A stretch of DNA of 64,000 bases from Eubacteriales bacterium. GTDB lineage: Bacteria; Bacillota; Clostridia; Oscillospirales; CAG-272. Under the pieces are notes generated by a model. That model was given only the letters and a program-made list of their open reading frames with translations, did no database searches and was not told the origin of the DNA. The stretch covers positions 4,849 to 68,848 of the forward strand of contig JAZREL010000014.1 of assembly GCA_045660785.1 (NCBI GenBank), given 5' to 3'. A program made the position numbers and the translations under genes. Positions 2,554 through 49,157 of the stretch are shown piece after piece; the first letter of the stretch is position 1, and every line of letters starts with the position of its first letter.

Positions 2554-3328
2554 TTTCTATTCCTCCGCTTTCTATGACCTCTAAGTATTTTTCGTTCAAC
2601 TCACATCCGACAAAATTTCTTTTTTGCCCTTTAGCAACAACACTCGTCATTCCCGAGCCGCTAAACAAATCCAAAACGATTGAGTTTTCATTACTGCTCG
2701 CCTTTACGATTCTTTCTATCATCTCATATGGCTTAACCGTTGGGTGCTTTAGCGCCCTAACCTTCCCATTCACCTTTTCCTTATGCCTTTGAGATGTTAT
2801 TTCCCAAACGTCATTACACAACTTTCCGTTTTCATTTGGAAACCAACGCTTTCCATTTTTGAGTATGCCTTTTTTTGCGGCGTGCGCCATTCTTTGCTTA
2901 GACTCATACGGTATTCTTATATCATCTGAATTGAATACATATTCATTTGTTTTGGTAAAAAACAGTATTGTTTCCTGAGCATTTACATACTTTCTTTTCG
3001 TGCTACTAAACCCATCTTTTTTATACCATGTTATCCAATTTCTATATTTGAGATCCTTGCTTCTCAAATAATTCAAAATTATCGCCGAATTGTATGCGGT
3101 GTTAAATACGTAAAGCGACGCATTGTTTTTCAGTTTTGGTATTACCTTATCAATCCAACCAAAGGTAAATTCAAAATATTTTTCCTCGCTCTCAAATGAA
3201 TCCCACTCACCCTTTTTTAGGTTGTATGGAGGATCTATTATCGCCAAATCGATACTTTCGTTTTCTAATTTATCTAAGAATTCAAAAACGTCAGCGTGGT
3301 AAACCTTATTAATTATCAAGTAGCTCAC
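2540..3328 (-). CDS. DNA methyltransferase, beta-class N6A/N4C family (DPPY motif)
   Basis: 262 aa. Motif IV IIDPPYNL near the N-terminus and motif I FSGSGMT near the C-terminus (beta permutation, ParB-less N6_N4_Mtase type). Overlaps the R gene by 14 nt. Start is GTG at 3328, or TTG 9 nt downstream. Confidence 0.85.
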   Translation of the reverse strand: MSYLIINKVYHADVFEFLDKLENESIDLAIIDPPYNLKKGEWDSFESEEKYFEFTFGWIDKVIPKLKNNASLYVFNTAYNSAIILNYLRSKDLKYRNWITWYKKDGFSSTKRKYVNAQETILFFTKTNEYVFNSDDIRIPYESKQRMAHAAKKGILKNGKRWFPNENGKLCNDVWEITSQRHKEKVNGKVRALKHPTVKPYEMIERIVKASSNENSIVLDLFSGSGMTSVVAKGQKRNFVGCELNEKYLEVIESGGIEIGRL

Positions 3329-14772: not shown

Positions 14773-15828
14773 ATGGATTTTTCTAAAATGCCCGACTTTT
14801 TTGCTGGCTCCCTTTCATCAAGGGAGGCGTGGGAGCAAAAAAGAACGGAATTAAAATCACTTATATTAAACGAGGAGTACGGCACGTTCCCCTCTCTTCC
14901 CTCTCCCTCTATTACGGTTGAGCGACAAGGCGTCAACTTTGCAGGCAAGGCGGATTGGGACCGCGTGAGCTTTGAATTTTCTCAAGGCGAAAGGACACAC
15001 ACGGTTGAAGCCGAGCTGATTTTGCTAAAAAACGAGCCGCTAAACAAGCCGCTCTTTATTTACATTGACTTTTCTAAGGAAACGCCTTCAAAATATTTAC
15101 CCGTTGAGGAAATTTTAGATAGCGGCTGTAACATTTTCAAGGTTTTCTATCAGGACGTAACAAGTGACGACGGGGATTTTGAAAACGGTCTTTGCGCGCT
15201 TGCCTCGGGCGGTGGCGAGATATACGGAAAAATTGCCGTATGGTCATATTTTTTAAGAATTATGGCAGACTATCTTTGTTCAATCGGCTACACGGGCACG
15301 CTTGCGGTTGCAGGACATTCTCGCCTTGGAAAAACCGCACTGCTTACCGCAGCTTACGACGAAAGATTTATGCTTGCTTGCGTAAACAACAGCGGCTGCG
15401 CGGGTGCGTCATTCTCGCGCTTTAAGGAAAATGGCGAGGAAACAATAAAGGACATTGTGGGCACGTTCCCATTCTGGTTCAAGAAAAAATTCCACTCGTA
15501 CGTAGATAACGAGGATGCCTTACCCTTTGACCAACATATGCTTCTTGCCTTGGTTGCGCCAAGGTGCGCACTTATCGGCTGTGCCGAGCTTGACTATTGG
15601 GCGGACAACGATGGCGCTTATCACTCTTGCCTGCTTGCAAGCGGCGCGTGGGGGGCTTACGGCAAGACGGGAATTTTCCCTGCGCCTCATTCATATAGCG
15701 AGCTGACAAAGGACAATCTATATCCAACGTTAATGGGGAAAGAGCTTGGCTACTTTATAAGAAGCGGCACACATTTCTTGTCCCGTTACGATTGGCAAAA
15801 ATACATAGAAAAAATAAAGGAGCTTTAA
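14773..15828 (+). CDS. Alpha/beta hydrolase, CE15 glucuronoyl-esterase-like
   Basis: Start at MDFSKM after GGAGG. Nucleophile elbow AGHSRLGKTAL resembles the CE15 G-x-S-R-x-G motif. PFDQHMLLALVAPR and a C-terminal GTH are also present. Confidence 0.5.
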   Translation: MDFSKMPDFFAGSLSSREAWEQKRTELKSLILNEEYGTFPSLPSPSITVERQGVNFAGKADWDRVSFEFSQGERTHTVEAELILLKNEPLNKPLFIYIDFSKETPSKYLPVEEILDSGCNIFKVFYQDVTSDDGDFENGLCALASGGGEIYGKIAVWSYFLRIMADYLCSIGYTGTLAVAGHSRLGKTALLTAAYDERFMLACVNNSGCAGASFSRFKENGEETIKDIVGTFPFWFKKKFHSYVDNEDALPFDQHMLLALVAPRCALIGCAELDYWADNDGAYHSCLLASGAWGAYGKTGIFPAPHSYSELTKDNLYPTLMGKELGYFIRSGTHFLSRYDWQKYIEKIKEL

Positions 15829-23433: not shown

Positions 23434-23505
23434 TTATAATTCTACCTCAAGCAGCTTGTCAAGCTCCGCGCTCTTTTCGCTTGAGTATAGGGGGAGGCGT
23501 ATATC
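23434..23505 (-). pseudogene. Displaced, recoded duplicate of the last 23 codons + stop of dapA
   Basis: Encodes DIRLPLYSSEKSAELDKLLEVEL*, versus ELRLPLSPTQKSAELDKLLEIEL* at the live dapA end. It lies downstream of the inserted element. Confidence 0.7.
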
Positions 23506-23602
23506 TTGCCTTCCCCAGTTAGGGGAAGGGGGACCGCAGTTGGGTGCTTGAAAACAAGCGGTGCGCGAAAACGCCTGCGGTGGATGAGGTGTATAATGCA
23601 TA
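23506..23602 (-). mobile_element. Solo-end palindromic mini-element (divergent member of the DUF559-cassette TIR family) inserted right after the dapA stop
   Basis: Outer palindrome CCTTCCCC-agtta-GGGGAAGG, then GGGGACCGCAGTTGGGTG and CTGCGGTGGATGAGGTGT. These parallel GGGGACCGCTTGCGGTGGAGGGATTGGTGTG of the full element at 40110. Confidence 0.5.
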
Positions 23603-24478
23603 TCAAAGCTCAATTTCGAGTAATTTGTCAAGCTCTGCGCTCTTCTGAGTCGGAGAAAGGGGGAGGCGTAGCTCGTTTTCCATAAAACCGAGGCGCGAAA
23701 GGAGATATTTTAGCGGCACGGGGTTGGTTTCACAAAAAAGTGATGATATAATTGGAGATAGCTCACGTTGGATTTTTAGCGAAATATCGACACGTCCCGC
23801 CACGAAATGAGTGCAAAGCTCGCGCATTTTTCTTGGCACAAGGTTTGAAGCAACCGAAACTACGCCATAGCCGCCAAGGGACAAATTCAGGTAGGTCATA
23901 TCGTCGTTGCCTGTGTAAATTGCGTATCTTTCGCCGTATAATCGGTGCAGCTCCTGCAAATAGCTCGCGTTTCCGCTTGCCTCCTTAACCGCGACTATAT
24001 TTTCCTCATCAATGAGCTTTCCGTAAACGGAAAGTGGGATTTGCGCGCCCGTTCTTGACGGCACGTTATATAAAATCAGCGGAAGCGGTGTGCTTTTTGC
24101 CACCTCCCTAAAGTGATTTACAAGCCCGTTTTCGTTTGGCTTATTGTAGTATGGCGAGACGCACAAAAGTGCATTTGCCCCCGAGGAGTGTGCGTTTTTG
24201 GCATATCTTACCGTGCTTTCGGTGCAGTTTGTGCCGACACCGACAACAAGGGGAATTCTTCCCTTTACTACCTCGCTTGAAAATTTTACTATTTCCTCGC
24301 GCTCACTCTCGCTAACCGTGGGTGCTTCCCCCGTTGTGCCGAGAACCACTATCGCGTCTGCGCCGTTTTCTATTTGATATTCTATTACGTGCCCAAGCGC
24401 TAAGCAGTCAACCTCGCCGCCCTTAAAGGGAGTGGGGAGCGCGGTGATAACGCCAAAGGGCAAAATATTCTTTTGCAT
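23603..24478 (-). CDS. dapA: 4-hydroxy-tetrahydrodipicolinate synthase
   Basis: 291 aa. GVITALPTPF, VLGTTGEAPT and YNVPSRTG motifs. Confidence 0.9.
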   Translation of the reverse strand: MQKNILPFGVITALPTPFKGGEVDCLALGHVIEYQIENGADAIVVLGTTGEAPTVSESEREEIVKFSSEVVKGRIPLVVGVGTNCTESTVRYAKNAHSSGANALLCVSPYYNKPNENGLVNHFREVAKSTPLPLILYNVPSRTGAQIPLSVYGKLIDEENIVAVKEASGNASYLQELHRLYGERYAIYTGNDDMTYLNLSLGGYGVVSVASNLVPRKMRELCTHFVAGRVDISLKIQRELSPIISSLFCETNPVPLKYLLSRLGFMENELRLPLSPTQKSAELDKLLEIEL

Positions 24479-27686: not shown

Positions 27687-28002
27687 TTTGCCTGCAAGAA
27701 TAGCAAGGGCTTTAGAGGACGAGAAAAAAGTGCGAGCGAGCCGGCGTCGTCGTACTAATGTACGACAGAGGGCTTGGTCGCGATTAGAAAAGCAGAAAGG
27801 AGATTTTCTTTTTGAAAATCTCTACCTTAAAAGGTTCGGTGGCGTCTTGACCTGCGAACATAAAATTAAAATTGCTTTTCGTTTTAAGAGGTTCCCCGAA
27901 CCGAATAGGGGTCCTCAAAGCGAAGAATGAGCTTTGGGGTTCTCGTAGTTGAGGTTTTGGGGTTCACGTTTTTCGTGCTGTAAAGAACTTGAAAGGAGAA
28001 AA

Positions 28003-29943: not shown

Positions 29944-30747
29944 TTATATTTTGGAGAAAAGGTCCAGTCCCGATTTTTTCAAAAACCACGTGATAAGGCG
30001 CGGTGCTTTGCTTGGGAAAATACGGTGAACAAGGTCAAGCGCGCACGCGTCCTTGCCAACCACTATTCTTCTCTTGCGCCTTCTTACACGGTTAACTATT
30101 TTGCGCGCAACTACATCCGCGTCCGCGCTGAACGAGCGCACTATACGTGCTTCCTTGCCCGAAATTTGTTGATTTTTCAATATATTAGTTCTTACAAAGC
30201 CGGGCATCACGCTTGAAAAGCGCACGTCCTGTCTTTCACAGCTGAGCGATAGTGTAAACGCGTTTAAGGCGCTCTTTGTCGCGGTGTACGTGCTAACGCC
30301 GCCAAATGGGCAAAGCGCAGCCGCACTTGAAACGTTTACAACTGCCCCACCCTCGGTAAGAATCGGCTCAAGCGCGCGATATGAATACGCGCAGGATAGA
30401 AAATTAAGCTTTACTATTCCTTCAAGCTCGTCTATTTCTGTCTTATCAAAGGATTTAAATTCAGGGAGCGCGCCTGCACAGTTAATAAGCGCATCAACCT
30501 TAATTCTGTTATTTACAAGATAGGAAAAAAGCTCGCCCCAGCCGTCTTTTGACGCCACGTCCAAGGGGTACGGTATAAAGCGGTCGCCAAGCTCCGCCCT
30601 TGCCGCTTGAAGCTTTTCCCATCCGCGGGCAATACCGATTATGCGCGCGCCGTATTTCTTTATCAGATGCGAGGCAATTGCTTTGCCTATACCGCTTGAA
30701 GCGCCGCTTATCACCACGGTTTTTCCTCGAAAATCCAACTTTTTCAT
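29944..30747 (-). CDS. SDR family oxidoreductase
   Basis: 267 aa. ISGASSGIG and Y-x3-K (YTATK). Confidence 0.8.
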   Translation of the reverse strand: MKKLDFRGKTVVISGASSGIGKAIASHLIKKYGARIIGIARGWEKLQAARAELGDRFIPYPLDVASKDGWGELFSYLVNNRIKVDALINCAGALPEFKSFDKTEIDELEGIVKLNFLSCAYSYRALEPILTEGGAVVNVSSAAALCPFGGVSTYTATKSALNAFTLSLSCERQDVRFSSVMPGFVRTNILKNQQISGKEARIVRSFSADADVVARKIVNRVRRRKRRIVVGKDACALDLVHRIFPSKAPRLITWFLKKSGLDLFSKI

Positions 30748-32499: not shown

Positions 32500-33525
32500 A
32501 TGAAAACAGTATGCTTTGGCGAAATTATGCTCCGCTTAAATCCGGCGGGATACACAAGATTTATTCAAACAGATACGTTTGGCGCAACCTACGGTGGCGG
32601 TGAAGCAAACGTTGCAGTTTCTCTTGCTAACTACGGCATTGATGCATCCTACGTTACAAAGCTTCCAAGCCACGAAATCGGTCAAAGCGCGGTTAACTCA
32701 CTCCGCAGATACGGCGTTGACACAAGCGACATCGTAAGAGGTGGCGAGCGCGTTGGTATTTACTACCTTGAAACAGGCGCATCACAAAGACCGTCAAAGG
32801 TTATTTACGACCGTGCATATTCAGCTATTGCTCTTGCAAAGAGAAGCGATTTTGATTGGGAAAAGATCCTCGACGGCGCAAATTGGTTCCACTTTACAGG
32901 CATCACTCCGGCACTCGGCGGTGAGCTTCCCGAAATTTGTATGGACGCACTTAAGGTTTGCCGCGAAAAGGGCATCACCACAAGTTGCGACCTTAACTAC
33001 CGCAAAAACCTTTGGTCAACAGAGGAAGCAGGCAAGGTTATGGGCGAGCTTATGAAGCTTGTTGACGTTTGCATTGCAAACGAGGAGGACGCTGAAAAGG
33101 TATTCGGCATTAAGGCAGAAAACACAGACGTTGACGCAGGCGTTGTTAACCACGAGGGCTACAAGAGCGTTGCATCACAGCTCTCTGCCCGTTTCGGCTT
33201 CAAGCGCGTTGCTATTACACTCCGTACAAGCATTTCGGCAAACGACAACGTTTGGGCGGCTATGCTCTATGATGCAAACGAAAACGAATACTATTTCTCA
33301 CGCTCATATAACATCCACATCGTTGACCGTGTTGGCGGCGGTGACTCATTCGGCGGCGGTCTTATCTACGCTTCCTTGATGAACAAGTCAAGCCAAGACG
33401 TTATCGAATTTGCAGTTGGGGCATCATGCCTCAAGCACACAATTATCGGTGACTATAACTTAGTTAGCGTAAAAGAGGTTGAAGGCCTCATCAAGGGCGG
33501 CGGCTCAGGACGCGTTCAAAGATAA
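32500..33525 (+). CDS. kdgK: 2-dehydro-3-deoxygluconokinase (PfkB family)
   Basis: 341 aa. FGEIMLRLNP, GGGEANVAV and DRVGGGDSF motifs. Confidence 0.85.
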   Translation: MKTVCFGEIMLRLNPAGYTRFIQTDTFGATYGGGEANVAVSLANYGIDASYVTKLPSHEIGQSAVNSLRRYGVDTSDIVRGGERVGIYYLETGASQRPSKVIYDRAYSAIALAKRSDFDWEKILDGANWFHFTGITPALGGELPEICMDALKVCREKGITTSCDLNYRKNLWSTEEAGKVMGELMKLVDVCIANEEDAEKVFGIKAENTDVDAGVVNHEGYKSVASQLSARFGFKRVAITLRTSISANDNVWAAMLYDANENEYYFSRSYNIHIVDRVGGGDSFGGGLIYASLMNKSSQDVIEFAVGASCLKHTIIGDYNLVSVKEVEGLIKGGGSGRVQR

Positions 33526-33591
33526 CTTCCAAGCTTAAGGACAATCCCTCCGTCAACTACGTTGACACCTCCCTTTGCACAAAGGAGGCAA
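33526..33591 (+). mobile_element. Solo-end palindromic mini-element (TIR-family member) inserted right after the kdgK stop
   Basis: CAATCCCTC + hairpin GTCAAC-tac-GTTGAC + CTCCCTTTGCACAAAGGAG. This has the same three-part architecture as the right TIR of the DUF559 cassette at 40482. Confidence 0.6.
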
Positions 33592-33621
33592 GGCGGCGGA
33601 AGCGGACGAGTTCAAAGATAA
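33592..33621 (+). pseudogene. Displaced, recoded duplicate of the last 9 codons + stop of kdgK
   Basis: GGC GGC GGA AGC GGA CGA GTT CAA AGA TAA, versus the live GGC GGC GGC TCA GGA CGC GTT CAA AGA TAA. There are 5 nt differences, all synonymous (including TCA/AGC Ser). Confidence 0.7.
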
Positions 33622-33633
33622 TTACATAAAATT

Positions 33634-33665
33634 AAGACACAGGGCTTGCCCTGTGTCTTTTTTTA
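33634..33665 (+). terminator. Rho-independent terminator (native kdgK terminator)
   Basis: AAGACACAGGG-cttg-CCCTGTGTCTT followed by TTTTTT. Confidence 0.8.
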
Positions 33666-33743
33666 CGGTTGTTCGTTAAGCAAAGCGTGAAAGAAGCAAA
33701 TAAAAAAACGCGCCCGCTATTGCAGGCACGCCTTTATCAAATA

Positions 33744-38233: not shown

Positions 38234-40141
38234 ATGAAGGACGGATATATAAAGGTTAAATCAATCTCGCCGCGCACAGAGGTTGGCGGAGTTAGCTTTA
38301 ACAAGGAAGAAATCGTAAAGGAAATCAAAAGCGCAATCGGCCAGGGCGTAAAAATCCTCGTTTTTCCCGAGCTTACGTTAACGGGTAAGACGGCGGGTGA
38401 TATGGCTTACAGCGGCGTTATACTAAACGCTTGTGAAAAAGCGCTTCTAAACATCAAATTTGCGACACAGGGTAGCGATATTTTGGTTTTTGTCGGCGCT
38501 CCGCTTCAGTATAAGGGTGCATCCTATTCCTGCGCGGTTGCAATAAAATCGGGTGAGATTTTGGGCGTTGTGCCTAAGATTGGAAAAATGCCGTACTTTA
38601 AGGATTTTATAAAAATCGGTGACGAGAAATATCCGTTTGGCACGGATTTACTCTTTACCTGCAAGGAAATTAGTGACCTGACCATTGGCGTTGTCATCGG
38701 TGACGCCGTTGCAAATCCTTCACCGAAGGGATTTTTCCTTTGCGAAAACGGCGCAACAGTTATTGTTAACCTCTCGGGCAGCTACGAGCTTGTTTCGAGC
38801 GAGGAAATAAGACGCGCCGCGTTTGTTTCAAAGAGTTATGCCACGAGAAGTGCTTATATCGTTGCAAATCCAAGCGAGGACGAGTCAACGACGTCTAACG
38901 TTTATTCCGCTCATAATTTCATTGTGGAAAACGGTGATATTTTAGCGGAAAGCAAGCCGTTTGAGAAGAAAACAGGCGACTGTGTGTCTGAAATTGACGT
39001 TTCTTACCTTGCGGGCAAAAGAAATTCCGTCGGTGCGCGCGCCGAGGCAATAACGGACGTTTCCTTCTCTTTTAAGCTTGAAAAAACCACTCTTACAAGA
39101 AAAATTTCAAAAACACCTTTTTTTCCTGAAGGCAAGGAAGAACTCAAAAGGCACTGTGAAAAAATCCTCACAATGCAGTCACGCTCCCTTGCCAAAAGGT
39201 TGACTGCATCTTATTCCAAGGGAATGGTGCTTGGAATTTCGGGCGGCCTTGACTCCACTCTTGCCCTTCTTGCCTGCGTTAAGTGCGCGGACTATCTCGG
39301 TTGGGACAGAAAAACGGTCACCGCCATTACAATGCCCTGCTTTGGCACAACAAAGCGCACAAAATCAAACGCGACCGAGCTTTGCAAATCCCTTGGAGTT
39401 ACGCTTCGCGAAATAAACATCTTTGAAGCAACAAGGGTTCATTTCAAGGACATCGGACACGACGAAAACGACCATAGCGTAGTTTACGAAAATGCGCAAG
39501 CACGTGAGCGCACACAAATTTTAATGGACGTGGCTAATTCAATCGGCGCGCTTGTTATCGGCACGGGCGACCTTTCCGAGGTTGCACTCGGTTGGTCAAC
39601 CTACAACGGTGACCATATGTCGATGTATAATATAAATTCCGCCCTTCCAAAGACCTTAATCAGACACGTGGTCGAGCATTTTGCAAATATAAGCGACGAA
39701 AACGTGAAAGGAATTTTGCTTGATATTCTTGATACTCCCGTTTCCCCCGAGCTTCTTCCAGCCAAGGAAAACGGCGAAATTGAGCAAAAAACAGAGGACA
39801 TTGTCGGCCCATACGAGTTACACGATTTCTTTATTTACAATTTTGTAGGGCGCAAATTTGCCCCCTCAAAGATTTACCGCTTGGCGCTTTACGCCTTTGG
39901 TGGAAAATACGACGGCGACACCGTTTATAAATGGCTCACCGTATTTATCAAGCGCTTCTTTACTCAGCAGTTCAAGCGCTCCTGCTCACCTGACGGAATC
40001 AGAATCGGCTCAGTTTCCCTCTCAAAAAATGATTTTTCAATGGTAAGCGATTTTTCGTACAAATCATTTTTAGAGGAGTTAAATTCATGCCTCCCTTGTG
40101 CAAAGGGAGGGGGACCGCTTGCGGTGGAGGGATTGGTGTGA
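38234..40141 (+). CDS. nadE: Glutamine-dependent NAD+ synthetase, C-terminus replaced by read-through into an inserted element
   Basis: 635 aa. N-terminal nitrilase-like domain plus a synthetase domain (GISGGLDST, NAQARERT). The last 19 aa (SCLPCAKGGGPLAVEGLV and nearby residues) are encoded by the element's inverted repeat. The native ...EELNENK* ending survives in the displaced copy. Confidence 0.85.
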   Translation: MKDGYIKVKSISPRTEVGGVSFNKEEIVKEIKSAIGQGVKILVFPELTLTGKTAGDMAYSGVILNACEKALLNIKFATQGSDILVFVGAPLQYKGASYSCAVAIKSGEILGVVPKIGKMPYFKDFIKIGDEKYPFGTDLLFTCKEISDLTIGVVIGDAVANPSPKGFFLCENGATVIVNLSGSYELVSSEEIRRAAFVSKSYATRSAYIVANPSEDESTTSNVYSAHNFIVENGDILAESKPFEKKTGDCVSEIDVSYLAGKRNSVGARAEAITDVSFSFKLEKTTLTRKISKTPFFPEGKEELKRHCEKILTMQSRSLAKRLTASYSKGMVLGISGGLDSTLALLACVKCADYLGWDRKTVTAITMPCFGTTKRTKSNATELCKSLGVTLREINIFEATRVHFKDIGHDENDHSVVYENAQARERTQILMDVANSIGALVIGTGDLSEVALGWSTYNGDHMSMYNINSALPKTLIRHVVEHFANISDENVKGILLDILDTPVSPELLPAKENGEIEQKTEDIVGPYELHDFFIYNFVGRKFAPSKIYRLALYAFGGKYDGDTVYKWLTVFIKRFFTQQFKRSCSPDGIRIGSVSLSKNDFSMVSDFSYKSFLEELNSCLPCAKGGGPLAVEGLV

Positions 40142-40533
40142 ACAGACGTCACAACAAGCTACTCGTACCATTAGCAAAGAATCTTCGAAAAGATATGACG
40201 GATGAGGAAAAACACTTGTGGTATGATTTTTTGAGAACCTACCCTGTTCGCTTCATTCGCCAAAAAATAATAGACGGCTATATAGTAGATTTTTATTGTG
40301 CAAAAGCTAAATTGGTTATTGAGCTTGACGGTTCTCAACACGGCGAAGAAAAAAACGCAATAAAAGATTCTGCGCGCGATTTTGAACTCTCGAAATACGA
40401 CATAAAAGTCATAAGGATACCTAATCATAAAATTTGGAATAACTTTAAGGGCGTTTGCGAGTACATTGACTTTCAAGTTCTCCAATCCCTCAGTCAGCAT
40501 AGCTGACAGCTCCCTTTGCACAAGGGAGCCAAA
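40085..40533 (+). mobile_element. DUF559-nuclease cassette bounded by about 46-nt composite terminal inverted repeats
   Basis: Left end, 40091-40136: CTCCCTTGTGCAAAGGGAG + GGGGACCGCTTGCGGTG + GAGGGATTGG. Right end, 40482-40528: CCAATCCCTC + AGTCAGCATAGCTGACAG + CTCCCTTTGCACAAGGGAG. The outer 19-mer and inner 10-mer are exact reverse complements. The middle is a different hairpin in each end. Confidence 0.65.
40138..40506 (+). CDS. DUF559 domain endonuclease (Vsr/PD-(D/E)XK-like)
   Basis: 122 aa from GTG (VNRRHNKLLVPLAKNLRKDMTDEEKHLWYDFLR...YIVDFYCAKAKLVIELDGSQH...). The ATG at 40087 is an alternative start but lies inside the palindrome. The stop falls in the right-end hairpin. Confidence 0.75.
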   Translation: MNRRHNKLLVPLAKNLRKDMTDEEKHLWYDFLRTYPVRFIRQKIIDGYIVDFYCAKAKLVIELDGSQHGEEKNAIKDSARDFELSKYDIKVIRIPNHKIWNNFKGVCEYIDFQVLQSLSQHS

Positions 40534-40650
40534 TCCCGCTCACCTGACGGAGTTCGTATTGGCTCGGTTTCCCTCTCCAAGAACGACTTTAAAATGGCAA
40601 GTGACTTTTCATACAAATCATTTTTAGAGGAATTAAACGAAAATAAATAA
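40534..40650 (+). pseudogene. Displaced, recoded duplicate of the last about 37 codons + stop of nadE
   Basis: Encodes SPDGVRIGSVSLSKNDFKMASDFSYKSFLEELNENK*. Over the 33 codons shared with the live copy, 15 codons differ: 12 synonymously and 3 by replacement (I/V, S/K, V/A). Confidence 0.75.
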
Positions 40651-46420: not shown

Positions 46421-46456
46421 TTATTTGTTAAGAAGTGTTTCAACAAGTGTGGGTGC
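46421..46456 (-). pseudogene. Displaced, recoded duplicate of the last 11 codons + stop of alaS
   Basis: Encodes APTLVETLLNK*, versus the live ALALVETLLSK*. 8 of 36 nt differ, including synonymous Leu recodings (CTC/CTT, TTG/CTT). Confidence 0.65.
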
Positions 46457-46538
46457 TTCTTTTCGCCTCCCTTGTGCAAAGGTGAGGTGGCACGACTTGT
46501 CGTGACGGAGGGATTGACCGTTTGCTTTAGCAATTATT
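46457..46538 (-). mobile_element. Solo-end palindromic mini-element (TIR-family member) inserted right after the alaS stop
   Basis: The plus strand reads CTCCCTTGTGCAAAGGTGAG + GTGGCACGACTTGTCGTGAC + GGAGGGATTG. This is the three-part TIR architecture, and its orientation relative to the host gene matches the kdgK copy. Confidence 0.6.
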
Positions 46539-49157
46539 TTATTTGCTCAAGAGTGTTTCAACAAGTGCAAGCGCATCGGCAATTTTGGAGATGTCCTTGC
46601 CGCCGCTCATTGCGCTGTCGGGGCGTCCGCCGCCCTTACCGCCTGTTACTGCGCTAACCTCGCCAAGGATTTTGCCTGCGTGTGCGCCGTTTTTAACTGC
46701 ACCCTTACCGCATACTGCGATAAAGTTGAGCTTTTCGCCTGAATGGATTGCAAATACAGCAACTGCGTTTTCGTCCTTGTCCTTGATTACGTCACCAAGT
46801 GAACGAACCGCGTCAGCACCCATATCACCAAGGTTTGCGGTGATAACGTTGAATGCGCCAACTGCTTTTGCGCTGCTGATTAAGTCGTTAACTCTTGATG
46901 AAGCCATCTTGGAGTTAAGAGATTCAATCTCGCGCTTGAGAGCTTTTATTTCCTCATTTACCGCGCCTGCACGCTTAGCAATATCGTTTACGTTTTGGCA
47001 CTTAAGCTCGCTTGATGCCTTTTCAAGGAGATTTTCCTTGTTTTCAAGGAGTGAAAGCACGCCGTAGCCCGTTGTCGCTTCAATTCTGCGCACGCCTGCC
47101 GCAACGCCAATCTCGGAAATAATCTTAAACATACCTGCCTTTGCGGTATTGTCAAGGTGAGTACCGCCACAAAGCTCGGTTGAATAGTCGCCCATTTTAA
47201 CCATACGTACAACCTTGCCGTACTTTTCTCCAAAGAGAGCCATTGCACCGTTTTTACGTGCGGTTTCAATATCTGTTTCGAGTGTTTCAACCACTGTGCC
47301 CGAAAGGATTGCCTCGTTTACAAGTGCTTCAACCTCTTTGATTTCGTCCTTTGTGAGTGCTTGGAAGTGTGTAAAGTCAAATCTGCCGATTCTTTCATCA
47401 ACGTATGAGCCCGCTTGCTCAACGTGTGTGCCGAGAACCTTGCGGAGTGCGGCTTGGAGCAAGTGAACGGATGAGTGGTTTCTTGCAATAGAAGCACGTC
47501 TTGCGCCGTCAACCTGGCAGTTGAGCGTGTCGCCAACCTTTACTGTGCCGCTTGCAATTTTACACATATGAATATATACGCCGTCTGATTTTTTGGTGTC
47601 AACAACCTCAATTTCAGCATTTTCGTTTGTAAGTGCGCCTGTGTCGCCAACCTGACCGCCGCCCTCACCGTAGAATGAGGTAGTGTCGAGAACAACGGAG
47701 CATTCGCCCTCGCTTACTTCGCTTACGCTTTCGCCGTTTTCGTCAATAATTGCGATAACCTTGCCGCTTGCTTGGAGCGTGGTGTAGCCCTCGAACACAG
47801 TCTTTGGAAGCTCCAAGGATTTTTCCTTGTCCTGCCAACCGCTAATGCTTGCACGTGCGCTTCTCGCTCTTTGCTTTTGCTCCTGCATAAGCGCTGTAAA
47901 CTTGTCCATATCGGTGCCAAGTCCGTTTTCCTCGGCAATTTCACGGGTTAAGTCAATTGGAAAGCCAAAGGTGTCGTAAAGCTTGAACGCGTCCGCGCCG
48001 TCAAGAGTATCCTTGCCGCTTTCCTTTGCTTCCTTAATAAGATTTTCAAGAATTGAAAGTCCTTGGTCGATGGTTGCGGCAAAGCGCTCCTCCTCAAGAG
48101 CAAGAACCTTTTTGATGTAGTCTGATTTTTCCTCAAGCTCGCGATAGCCATCCTTGCTTTCGCCAATTGCAACCTCGCACATTTCAACAAGGAATGCACG
48201 CTCAATTCCAAGGAGCTTACCGTGACGGCAAGCGCGGCGAATGATACGGCGAAGCACGTAGCCCCTGCCCTCGTTTGAAGGAATAACGCCGTCGGAAATC
48301 ATAAACATTGCGCTTCTTGTATGGTCGGTGATAACGCGGATTGAAATATCATCTGCGGCATCCTTGCCGTAGGTTTTGCCTGAAATTTCGCACACGGTGT
48401 CAAGGATTTTACGTACGGAGTCAACCTCGAACATATTGTCAACGTCCTGCATTACGCAAGCAAGACGCTCAAGACCCATACCTGTATCGATGTTCTTTTG
48501 TGCAAGCTCTGTATAGTTGCCTTGTCCGTCGTTGTTGAACTGTGAAAATACGTTGTTCCAAATTTCCATGTATCTGTCGCAGTCGCAGCCCGGCTTACAG
48601 TCGTCTGAGCCACAGCCGTGCTTAATTCCACGGTCAAAGTAAATTTCGGAGCAAGGGCCGCAAGGACCTGAGCCGTGCTCCCAGAAGTTATCTGCCTTAC
48701 CGAGGCGAACAACGTGCGCAGGGTTAACGCCGATTTTGTTTACCCAAATATCGTACGCTTCCTCGTCGTTTTCGTAAATTGACGGCCAAAGAAGCTCACC
48801 GGGGATTTCAAGTGTAACGGTTAAAAACTCCCAAGCAAACTGAATTGCCTCCTCCTTGAAGTAGTCACCGAAGCTGAAGTTGCCAAGCATTTCAAAGAAC
48901 GTGCCGTGGCGCGCGGTGTGACCAACTCTTTCAAGGTCAGGTGTTCTTATACACTTTTGGCAGGTGGTAACTCTCTTTGAAGGAGGCACAACCTCACCTG
49001 TAAAGAACTTTTTCATCGGAGCCATACCCGAGTTTATAAGAAGAAGGGATTTATCGTTGTTTGGAACGAGCGAAAAGCTGCCAAGACGAAGGTGTCCCTT
49101 GCTTTCAAAATAGGAAAGATATTTTTCTCTTAAATCGTTAAGTGATGTCCATTTCAT
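46539..49157 (-). CDS. alaS: Alanine--tRNA ligase
   Basis: Start at MKWTSLNDLREKYLSYFESKGH (18 codons into the track ORF). Class II motifs, editing domain and C-terminal DHHA1-like GGGRPD. Confidence 0.95.
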   Translation of the reverse strand: MKWTSLNDLREKYLSYFESKGHLRLGSFSLVPNNDKSLLLINSGMAPMKKFFTGEVVPPSKRVTTCQKCIRTPDLERVGHTARHGTFFEMLGNFSFGDYFKEEAIQFAWEFLTVTLEIPGELLWPSIYENDEEAYDIWVNKIGVNPAHVVRLGKADNFWEHGSGPCGPCSEIYFDRGIKHGCGSDDCKPGCDCDRYMEIWNNVFSQFNNDGQGNYTELAQKNIDTGMGLERLACVMQDVDNMFEVDSVRKILDTVCEISGKTYGKDAADDISIRVITDHTRSAMFMISDGVIPSNEGRGYVLRRIIRRACRHGKLLGIERAFLVEMCEVAIGESKDGYRELEEKSDYIKKVLALEEERFAATIDQGLSILENLIKEAKESGKDTLDGADAFKLYDTFGFPIDLTREIAEENGLGTDMDKFTALMQEQKQRARSARASISGWQDKEKSLELPKTVFEGYTTLQASGKVIAIIDENGESVSEVSEGECSVVLDTTSFYGEGGGQVGDTGALTNENAEIEVVDTKKSDGVYIHMCKIASGTVKVGDTLNCQVDGARRASIARNHSSVHLLQAALRKVLGTHVEQAGSYVDERIGRFDFTHFQALTKDEIKEVEALVNEAILSGTVVETLETDIETARKNGAMALFGEKYGKVVRMVKMGDYSTELCGGTHLDNTAKAGMFKIISEIGVAAGVRRIEATTGYGVLSLLENKENLLEKASSELKCQNVNDIAKRAGAVNEEIKALKREIESLNSKMASSRVNDLISSAKAVGAFNVITANLGDMGADAVRSLGDVIKDKDENAVAVFAIHSGEKLNFIAVCGKGAVKNGAHAGKILGEVSAVTGGKGGGRPDSAMSGGKDISKIADALALVETLLSK

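Follow-up and report, generated by a model that had tools for sequence, protein, structure and literature searches.

Why should a bacterial gene be followed, shortly after its stop codon, by a second and differently spelled copy of its own last nine codons? The question is raised by a kdgK-like gene in a 64,000-nucleotide (nt) stretch of a Eubacteriales genome (contig JAZREL010000014.1 of assembly GCA_045660785.1, positions 4,849 to 68,848), which is referred to here as the window. The gene encodes a PfkB sugar kinase (32500..33525, + strand, from the list of open reading frames, ORFs; Pfam PF00294, E=1.3e-34), whose homologs carry the annotation 2-dehydro-3-deoxygluconokinase and whose C-terminus, ending in SGRVQR and stop, is near-invariant across 120 homologs. 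Its last nine codons and stop, the functional tail A (33496..33525, GGC GGC GGC TCA GGA CGC GTT CAA AGA TAA), are followed by an insert of exactly 66 nt (33526..33591), by a second and now untranslated tail B (33592..33621, GGC GGC GGA AGC GGA CGA GTT CAA AGA TAA) and by the native intrinsic terminator of kdgK (33634..33666, by terminator scan and RNA fold), an 11-bp stem (33634-33659) with a T-run, all on the + strand. The preliminary description of this DNA had given the insert directly after the stop, its sequence and coordinates, and the order of second tail and terminator exactly so. A recount of the tails also returned its figures: both encode GGGSGRVQR and a stop, and their 5 mismatches in 30 nt, spread over 3 codons, are all synonymous, including a serine codon that is TCA in tail A and AGC in tail B. 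The insert and second tail are probably the remnant of a small selfish element with a DUF559 (Vsr-like) nuclease gene and hairpin ends, which lodges at the 3' ends of housekeeping genes, replaces their tails and displaces the native tail to a downstream position.

What the insert is follows from a full-length reference copy of the element that lies in the tail of nadE in the same window (40088..40531, + strand; Pfam, covariance model and sequence). An intact element of ~440 bp comprises an imperfect terminal inverted repeat (TIR) of ~50 bp, a DUF559 gene and a second TIR; in the reference copy these are the left TIR (L-TIR) at 40088-40139 (49 bits with the covariance model), an ORF of 122 aa at 40138-40506 (Pfam PF04480, E=5e-27) and the right TIR (R-TIR) at 40479-40531 (67.7 bits), all on the + strand. 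Each TIR is made of two hairpins, HP1 and HP2, and a box (CAATCCCTC/GAGGGATTG), which reads GGAGGGATTG on the left and CAATCCCTC on the right. The left box is probably also the ribosome-binding site of the DUF559 ORF; on the right, TIR and ORF end overlap, and the box together with the first HP2 arm supplies the codons for the conserved C-terminus QSLSQLR and its stop.

The kdgK insert holds a single such TIR (33538..33590, + strand, by covariance model, alignment, DNA fold and covariation) and no ORF. From the stop codon, a 16-nt spacer CTTCCAAGCTTAAGGA (33526..33541) leads to the box CAATCCCTC (33542-33550), to HP2 in the form GTCAAC-tac-GTTGAC (33552-33566, by sequence and DNA fold) and to HP1 (33568-33588, likewise; CTCCCTTTGCACAAAGGAG at 33569-33587), after which comes a short linker. 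The match to the end of a DUF559 cassette that had been noticed from the letters is borne out by a covariance model of the cassette ends, built from 59 TIRs, which scores the insert at 63.8 bits (E~3e-17), and by a 19-mer of the insert, for which the window yields 3 matches where 0.01 would be expected. The earlier equation with the right end is refined in one respect. Left-type and right-type TIRs differ in 3 diagnostic places, one of them a covarying basal pair of HP1, and the kdgK copy has left-type bases at all three though it is placed in right-end orientation.

It could be asked whether the hairpins are kept for the sake of the host. An alignment of 113 TIR copies has 97.1% of its cells paired; double changes are seen in 10 of the 12 pairs, and none of 500 shuffles attains the observed covariation score, the counts being somewhat inflated since the alignment was fitted to the model. 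Compensatory changes are seen even in ORF-less copies, a T-run follows the right HP1 at many loci and the RNA fold has a z-score of -2.75, as would suit a host-beneficial structure (a stabiliser of the 3' untranslated region, a terminator or a regulatory RNA) beside which the second tail is incidental and no mobile scar exists. One-sided changes of the G-U type are near-absent, however, which argues for pairing at the DNA level or on both strands and not in the RNA of one strand; copies are found in either orientation, all 80 of the 80 loci examined have the module as the terminus of a nuclease cassette, a separate strong terminator stands after the kdgK module, and a duplicated and differently coded tail is left unaccounted for. 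Nor does Rfam hold a matching family: no match reaches the gathering threshold anywhere in the window, and near the insert there is only a sub-threshold, chance-level match over the terminator. A structure of this kind is therefore an improbable explanation. Two candidate features of the hairpins were also rejected. A hammerhead ribozyme was considered for CTGATGAG, which is found in the loop of the L001 hairpin when the reverse strand is read (the numbered loci, L001 and so on, are those compared with the window), but the window copy lacks the motif, the flanking helices are unfit by eye and Rfam is empty; a GCGAAGC mini-hairpin, taken as a general feature of HP2, occurs in just 26 of the 113 copies.

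The element belongs to a very widespread family. At least 8000 homologs of the DUF559 nuclease were found at E<1e-10, many of them on very short contigs, and 80 genomic loci were taken from metagenome-assembled genomes (MAGs) of gut or rumen Clostridia and Oscillospiraceae. All 80 contain the TIR-ORF-TIR unit, and a covariance search returned 194 TIR matches in 87 loci. Three forms are found: the full, autonomous element, ORF-less units of ~125 bp in which an L-TIR and an R-TIR are joined, resembling miniature inverted-repeat transposable elements (MITEs), and solo TIRs. The kdgK insert, ORF-less and with a single end, is probably a remnant within a family that has autonomous, MITE-like and solo forms. 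MITE-like units, with ~15-25 nt between the two TIRs, are seen at L062:741-864, L056:3042-3166 and L083:2136-2259, 2265-2394 and 2901-3010. They often stand in tandem beside a full copy, which suggests that element ends attract further insertions. Of 61 loci that could be classified, 51 have the L-TIR turned towards the 3' end of an ORF in the same orientation, often 0-30 nt past the stop, and the right side of full copies has no orientation bias (27 vs 24).

Which of the two tails is the resident one can be read from related kdgK 3' ends. The insert and a second tail, in diverged forms, are present only in the window and in relatives of 97% protein identity (L001-L004). Relatives at 92-94% (L005-L007, L088, L168, L169) have no insert and a single B-type tail (GGA AGC GGA), those at 91% (L170-172) have no insert and a native TCA-type tail, and no second tail is seen at ~70 more distant kdgK loci (63-87%). 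The arrangement is therefore not an ancient fixed feature of the gene. Tail B is homologous to the single tails of L005, L007, L088 and L168, as the preliminary description needed it to be, with 2-4 mismatches in 27 nt, whereas the tails A of the window, L001 and L004 have 7-9 mismatches in 27 nt to those of relatives without the insert and 2-4 among themselves. Since tail B is close to the uninserted relatives and tail A is not, B is the displaced native tail; tail A would then have arrived with the element. Codon type alone is no proof of foreign origin, given that the TCA tail is native in L170-172. The motif CCAAGCT is common to the kdgK spacer of the window and to the longer spacer of L001, which suggests a common ancestry of the two inserts. 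Exact-protein look-ups for the KdgK of the window and for P0121 gave no match.

Further, the module has changed hands as a unit. Only 2 of 996 nt separate the gene bodies of L001 and L004. Their tails A nevertheless differ at 4 of 27 nt, their tails B at 4 of 27, their inserts differ, including a compensatory change in HP2, and all of their downstream DNA differs. Near-identical gene bodies joined to different modules show that recombination replaced the module, the breakpoint lying ~50 nt ahead of the stop; the whole unit of gene end, insert and tail B has been exchanged between near-identical strains. The region 3' of kdgK is different in every lineage compared, which makes the kdgK 3' end a synteny breakpoint. 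Downstream of kdgK in L170 (3030-3480), L171 and L172 there is another repeat family, with several copies of CTAAATTGACTGTGAAATTCTTCGTTG and TGTCAATTATAGCCCAAGTGCAA.

Is kdgK a singular case? An unbiased scan of the 64-kb window for ORF tails re-encoded downstream returned four, in kdgK, nadE, alaS and a gene of the DHDPS family, with a hairpin insert between each pair. In all four the upstream copy is in frame and complete, and the insertion lies inside the coding 3' end, with the entire tail A upstream and a second copy B downstream. At nadE (+ strand; sequence and tail comparison) the full element separates tail A (39980-40084) from the displaced tail B (40534-40650). It sits 3 codons ahead of the native stop, and the NadE of the window ends in ...EELN plus ~18 residues from the left TIR (SCLPCAKGGGPLAVEGLV, then stop); the tails differ at 19 of 105 nt, tail B having a 3-nt deletion and 4 non-synonymous differences. 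At alaS (46421..46574, - strand; 57.8 bits with the covariance model, Pfam tRNA-synt_2c) a solo TIR (46464-46520) lies between tail A (...ALALVETLLSK and stop, 46574-46539) and tail B (...LVETLLNK and stop, 46459-46421), after which a terminator follows; the comparison with native tails was made here on protein tails, the relatives being at most 81% identical and their tails variable. The DHDPS-family gene (23434..23644, - strand; tail scan, Pfam DHDPS and a weak covariance match at 23507-23554) has tail A (KSAELDKLLEIEL and stop, 23644-23603), a variant insert of 127 nt and tail B (KSAELDKLLEVEL and stop, 23475-23434), the insert being composed of an CCTCATCC box, a long HP2 and an HP1 CCTTCCCCtaacTGGGGAAGG; its 13-codon tail has 7 synonymous and 1 non-synonymous differing codons. 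The variant insert resembles an element ~190 nt downstream of kdgK in L007. A further candidate near 30080 (LLTRL..., 6 of 8 residues) was discarded as chance-like, there being no hairpin element.

These four duplications bear on the choice between two alleles and one duplicated tail. Taken together, they hold 25 synonymous and 8 non-synonymous differing codons, while neutral decay of a displaced copy from an identical duplicate would give ~38% synonymous, an excess with P=1.2e-5. Both tail copies have therefore diverged mostly as coding sequence, and this excess, along with the module differences between L001 and L004, supports the earlier claim of two independently evolved alleles as opposed to a recent local duplication. 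The chief competing account is an insertion that itself duplicated a long piece of its target in place (by staggered nicks and fill-in), after which 30-nt copies, identical at first, would have come apart as tail A was recoded under selection, for example against repeat-mediated deletion. Near-identical repeats do flank the element at nadE in other genomes (105 nt in L008-L010, 58 nt in L174), and long, variable duplications, some over gene 3' ends, are known for restriction-enzyme-type genes (PMC2853133). Against it, a model of constrained A and neutral B is rejected by the synonymous excess, and a change from AGC to TCA needs at least two steps through non-serine codons in a near-invariant tail. 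The wholesale exchange of the module in L001/L004 and the donor-like look of the repeat edge at the element in L009 and L008 also speak against duplication in place. Moreover, the majority of the ~70 full copies have no flank duplication, from which it follows that duplication is not obligatory to insertion; such flank duplications as exist, other than extra TIR copies, are all in coding sequence and mostly in gene tails. In our judgement duplication in place is unlikely as the origin of the kdgK tails, though the near-identical tail copies elsewhere do mean that recent duplication or homogenisation also occurs in the family.

The nadE tail has the element with its nuclease in place. Those DUF559 copies that are nearest to the window's own, at 74-82% identity, all occupy the tail of nadE; they come from at least 8 genomes, the group consisting of the window, L008-L010, L173-L175 and P0135 (by read-through). 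That one nuclease subclade should be tied to nadE gives indirect support to the predicted cutting of its own empty site. The duplicated length differs by genome, 105 nt from AAGCGC in some and ~45-58 nt from AGCGAC in others, which argues against a fixed mechanistic duplication, and the divergence of A from B ranges from none (L174) to ~30% (the window, L173). In L009 and L008 the repeat edge at the element is like that of other genomes and unlike their own second copy, a pattern that fits co-conversion from a donor. The nadE tails B of L173 (1897-1975) and L174 (1897-1993) contain codons derived from HP1 (…NSCLTCAKG…, …ETCLPCANEP…), which are footprints of earlier insertion or excision there, and in L174 the duplication of 58 nt extends over the initial 15 nt of HP1. 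Given the near-palindromic form of HP1, the HP1 of the L-TIR and that of the R-TIR are also direct repeats of each other, and recombination between them would leave a single HP1.

Two other origins of a doubled gene end have to be weighed. Integrative elements offer a precedent for the same logic, a replacement 3' end with synonymous differences that displaces the native one: e14 and phage 21 integrate at icd of E. coli, carrying a substitute gene end. The kdgK arrangement could in principle be a leftover attachment-site duplication of an integrase-type island or prophage that once sat in the kdgK 3' end. Yet only 66 nt separate the tails, and these hold a TIR of the DUF559 family; the adjacent genes, for an OGG glycosylase and citrate synthase, include no recombinase, the complete element at nadE codes for a nuclease only, and no integrase-bearing island was seen between tails A and B among ~90 kdgK loci, all of which makes this origin very unlikely. 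An assembly artefact, in which a chimeric join at a repeat mimics a duplicated tail, also deserves mention, given that elements of this family are often at contig ends or on very short contigs and do break assemblies. The same architecture in diverged form recurs, however, in independent assemblies from different samples (L001-L004), and the window has 3 further tail duplications of the same layout, so that an artefact is hardly credible.

What kind of enzyme does the element encode? The ORF at 40138-40506 scores 94.3 bits against a Pfam PF04480 cut-off of 20.6, covering profile positions 6-104 of 109. Against known structures, the family profile matches 3HRL (DUF559) at E=2e-15 and, weakly, the catalytic domain of I-Bth0305I (3R3P) at E=2e-3, and the best PDB match of an AlphaFold model (pLDDT 75) is 3R3P (E=2e-5, template-modelling scores 0.63/0.76), followed by 3HRL and, more weakly, by Vsr (1CW0). 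The DUF559 protein is thus predicted to have a Vsr-like nuclease fold. Residues E62, D64, H68 and D77 are invariant in 24 family members and compatible with a Vsr-type active site, as a candidate counterpart of the E-D-x-H-D motif; in the HMMER alignment to 3R3P the position of D64 stands opposite N. The 122-aa protein is essentially the catalytic domain with ~35 low-confidence N-terminal residues. I-Bth0305I, the prototype of the EDxHD / Vsr-like homing endonucleases, is dimeric, has several domains, covers a footprint of ~60 bp and for the most part nicks its DNA (PMC3239194). The two are alike in structure (the best match, with a weak profile match) and in their association with conserved host genes; they differ in that the gene of I-Bth0305I is intron-encoded, whereas the putative nuclease here is free-standing, flanked by TIRs, with no intron or intein.

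A mechanism that would join these observations is homing-like recombinational repair, by which the element would spread between genomes with the occupied allele as template. The conserved gene end would serve as the left homology arm, and the donor tail would on that account come along with the element. On the right, the intergenic DNA is not conserved, and the junction would for this reason form at the break inside the recipient coding sequence, leaving the recipient's own tail stranded as B. Later loss of the ORF would give rise to the MITE-like and solo forms, with one end remaining at kdgK. The effect on the host appears to be neutral, the KdgK protein being unchanged and transcription ending at the predicted native terminator.

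Several points weigh against this account of a tail-replacing element. The kdgK solo would have decayed from a full copy, and no full-length element was found at the kdgK site among ~90 kdgK loci. The tails B of the window, L001 and L004 differ from one another only at synonymous sites, which is unexpected for long-dead DNA and is left unexplained unless the site is re-invaded time and again or B is under selection as a homology arm. The near-identical nadE tails of L008-L010 and L174 suit an imported allele no better than gene conversion or a new duplication of the target. Conserved TIRs and MITE-like copies suggest that the enzyme acts on the element's own ends, in the manner of a transposon and unlike classical homing, and the conservation of the TIR hairpins goes unexplained if the nuclease cuts the target instead. 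The 122-aa protein is without the extra DNA-binding domains of I-Bth0305I, and no common target motif for insertion has been established. The account also does not explain why the solos of the window at kdgK and alaS (33538-33590 and 46464-46520) have left-type bases in right-end orientation; a different insertion orientation, inversion or conversion between copies could be responsible. The kdgK solos at L001:3554-3605 and L004:1774-1825 are right-type.

With regard to target sites, the 5' boundaries of tail B are often at or near AGCG (33592, 40534 and 23475 in the window; L008-L010; L173-L175), a post hoc observation exemplified by AAGCGC and GTCAGCGAC at nadE, GGCGGAAGCGG at kdgK and AAGAGCGCGG in the DHDPS-family gene. 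These boundaries resemble the loop region of HP2 (GTCAGCGAAGCTGAC, GGCGAAGCCG), and AGCG may be a recognition motif of the nuclease or a microhomology. The idea that a recoded tail A confers self-immunity, by removing a motif that the element's own nuclease would target, is not supported as a general rule: the kdgK change from AGC to TCA removes GAAGCG, but both nadE copies keep the boundary motif. Groups of MAGs also share sites. In 11 of them (L028, L037, L038, L043, L055, L059, L063, L068, L074, L080, L081) a full element occupies one intergenic site at about 2390-2450, just downstream of the near-consensus promoter-like TTGACTaaaagcattaaaaatgaTAATAT, and a second site is common to L015-17, L023, L025, L042, L054 and L058; orthologous inheritance or site-specific spread could account for such sharing. 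Elsewhere in the window, a weak match to the TIR model (11.8 bits, 27739-27780, - strand, intergenic), with an CAAGCCCTC box, a hairpin GTCGTACattaGTACGAC, a decayed HP1 and no tail duplication, may be an old relic of the element. A perfect HP1-like hairpin, CTCCCTTtcatcAAGGGAG, near an ORF 5' end (14808-14826, + strand), without box and HP2, may be chance or a footprint.

How does the element compare with known systems? The searchable literature, incomplete in its coverage, yielded no account of a DUF559/TIR element in bacteria or of the way in which it replaces gene tails, and the mentions of DUF559 that were read there are incidental. The closest analogue is the gene hybrid formed by mobile ORFs (mORFs) in fungal mitochondria, described for Allomyces atp6 and for Glomus atp6, atp9, cox2 and nad3, with the layout of gene core, inserted C-terminus, endonuclease ORF and displaced native C*-terminus (PMC3630166). 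The layout is the same in the window, the native copy resembles that of relatives, the inserted one has diverged in DNA and is conserved in protein, and both cases can be read as transfer mediated by a homing endonuclease. At kdgK the downstream copy is indeed the nearer to relatives (2-4 of 27 nt for B, 7-9 for A); an endonuclease ORF between the copies is absent there but present at nadE in the same window. The endonucleases of mitochondrial mORFs are of the LAGLIDADG or GIY-YIG type. The bacterial element differs in its setting, chromosomes of gut Clostridia instead of mitochondria, in its DUF559/Vsr-like nuclease, and in its ~50-bp hairpin TIRs with MITE-like and solo derivatives.

Restriction-modification (RM) genes are a second point of comparison, since they insert, by an unknown mechanism, with long target duplications that leave direct repeats of >30 bp of the target, sometimes over a gene 3' end, and imperfect inverted repeats in addition border some of the RM units (Furuta, Abe, Kobayashi 2010, PMC2853133). 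A restriction-endonuclease-fold gene without a recombinase and direct repeats of the target are shared features. Yet RM repeats are near-identical, whereas those of the window have diverged like orthologous alleles with a synonymous bias, the DUF559 gene has no methyltransferase partner, and most copies of the family are without duplication. Near-identical repeats longer than 30 bp occur only in L008-L010 and L174, and not at kdgK (30 nt, with 5 of 30 differing) or at the nadE of the window. A third comparison is with small palindromic repeats. Repetitive extragenic palindromes and bacterial interspersed mosaic elements (REP/BIME), IS200/IS605 ends and MITEs are short multicopy palindromic units, non-autonomous derivatives of a protein-coding parent, with hairpins kept by compensatory changes. 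The element family shares the short multicopy palindromes, the ORF-less derivatives and the compensated hairpins, but it has TIRs without the short fixed-length target duplication of classical transposons and MITEs (its flank repeats are absent or 30-105 nt), and its sole ORF is a Vsr-like nuclease in place of an HUH or DDE transposase. We know of no counterpart to the replacement of gene tails in MITE or REP-type families.

It is tempting to go further and regard DUF559 proteins as the engines of an unrecognised class of bacterial mobile elements, in which a minimal Vsr-like nickase works on its own TIR hairpins, mobilises the autonomous, MITE-like and solo forms and, by means of portable gene tails, lets them settle in housekeeping-gene 3' ends, a proposal that we put forward tentatively and do not consider the likelier case. 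It would give a very large family of unknown function a concrete and testable role as a selfish mobile nuclease, and should DNA hairpins or short motifs prove to be what the nuclease recognises, it could be a compact new nicking enzyme. For work on gut metagenomes, mosaic gene 3' ends beside such elements can mislead phylogenies and strain typing, contigs break at the elements, and C-termini will be annotated as fused or extended, as with the additional TIR-encoded residues of NadE. The trick of supplying a spare gene tail, known from mitochondria, would also operate in bacterial chromosomes, with another nuclease and with hairpin inverted repeats. Finally, if the wider proposal is true, gene 3' ends would be hotspots of recombination between strains of gut Clostridia, and stranded native tails such as tail B of kdgK would serve as homology arms or landing pads for re-invasion.

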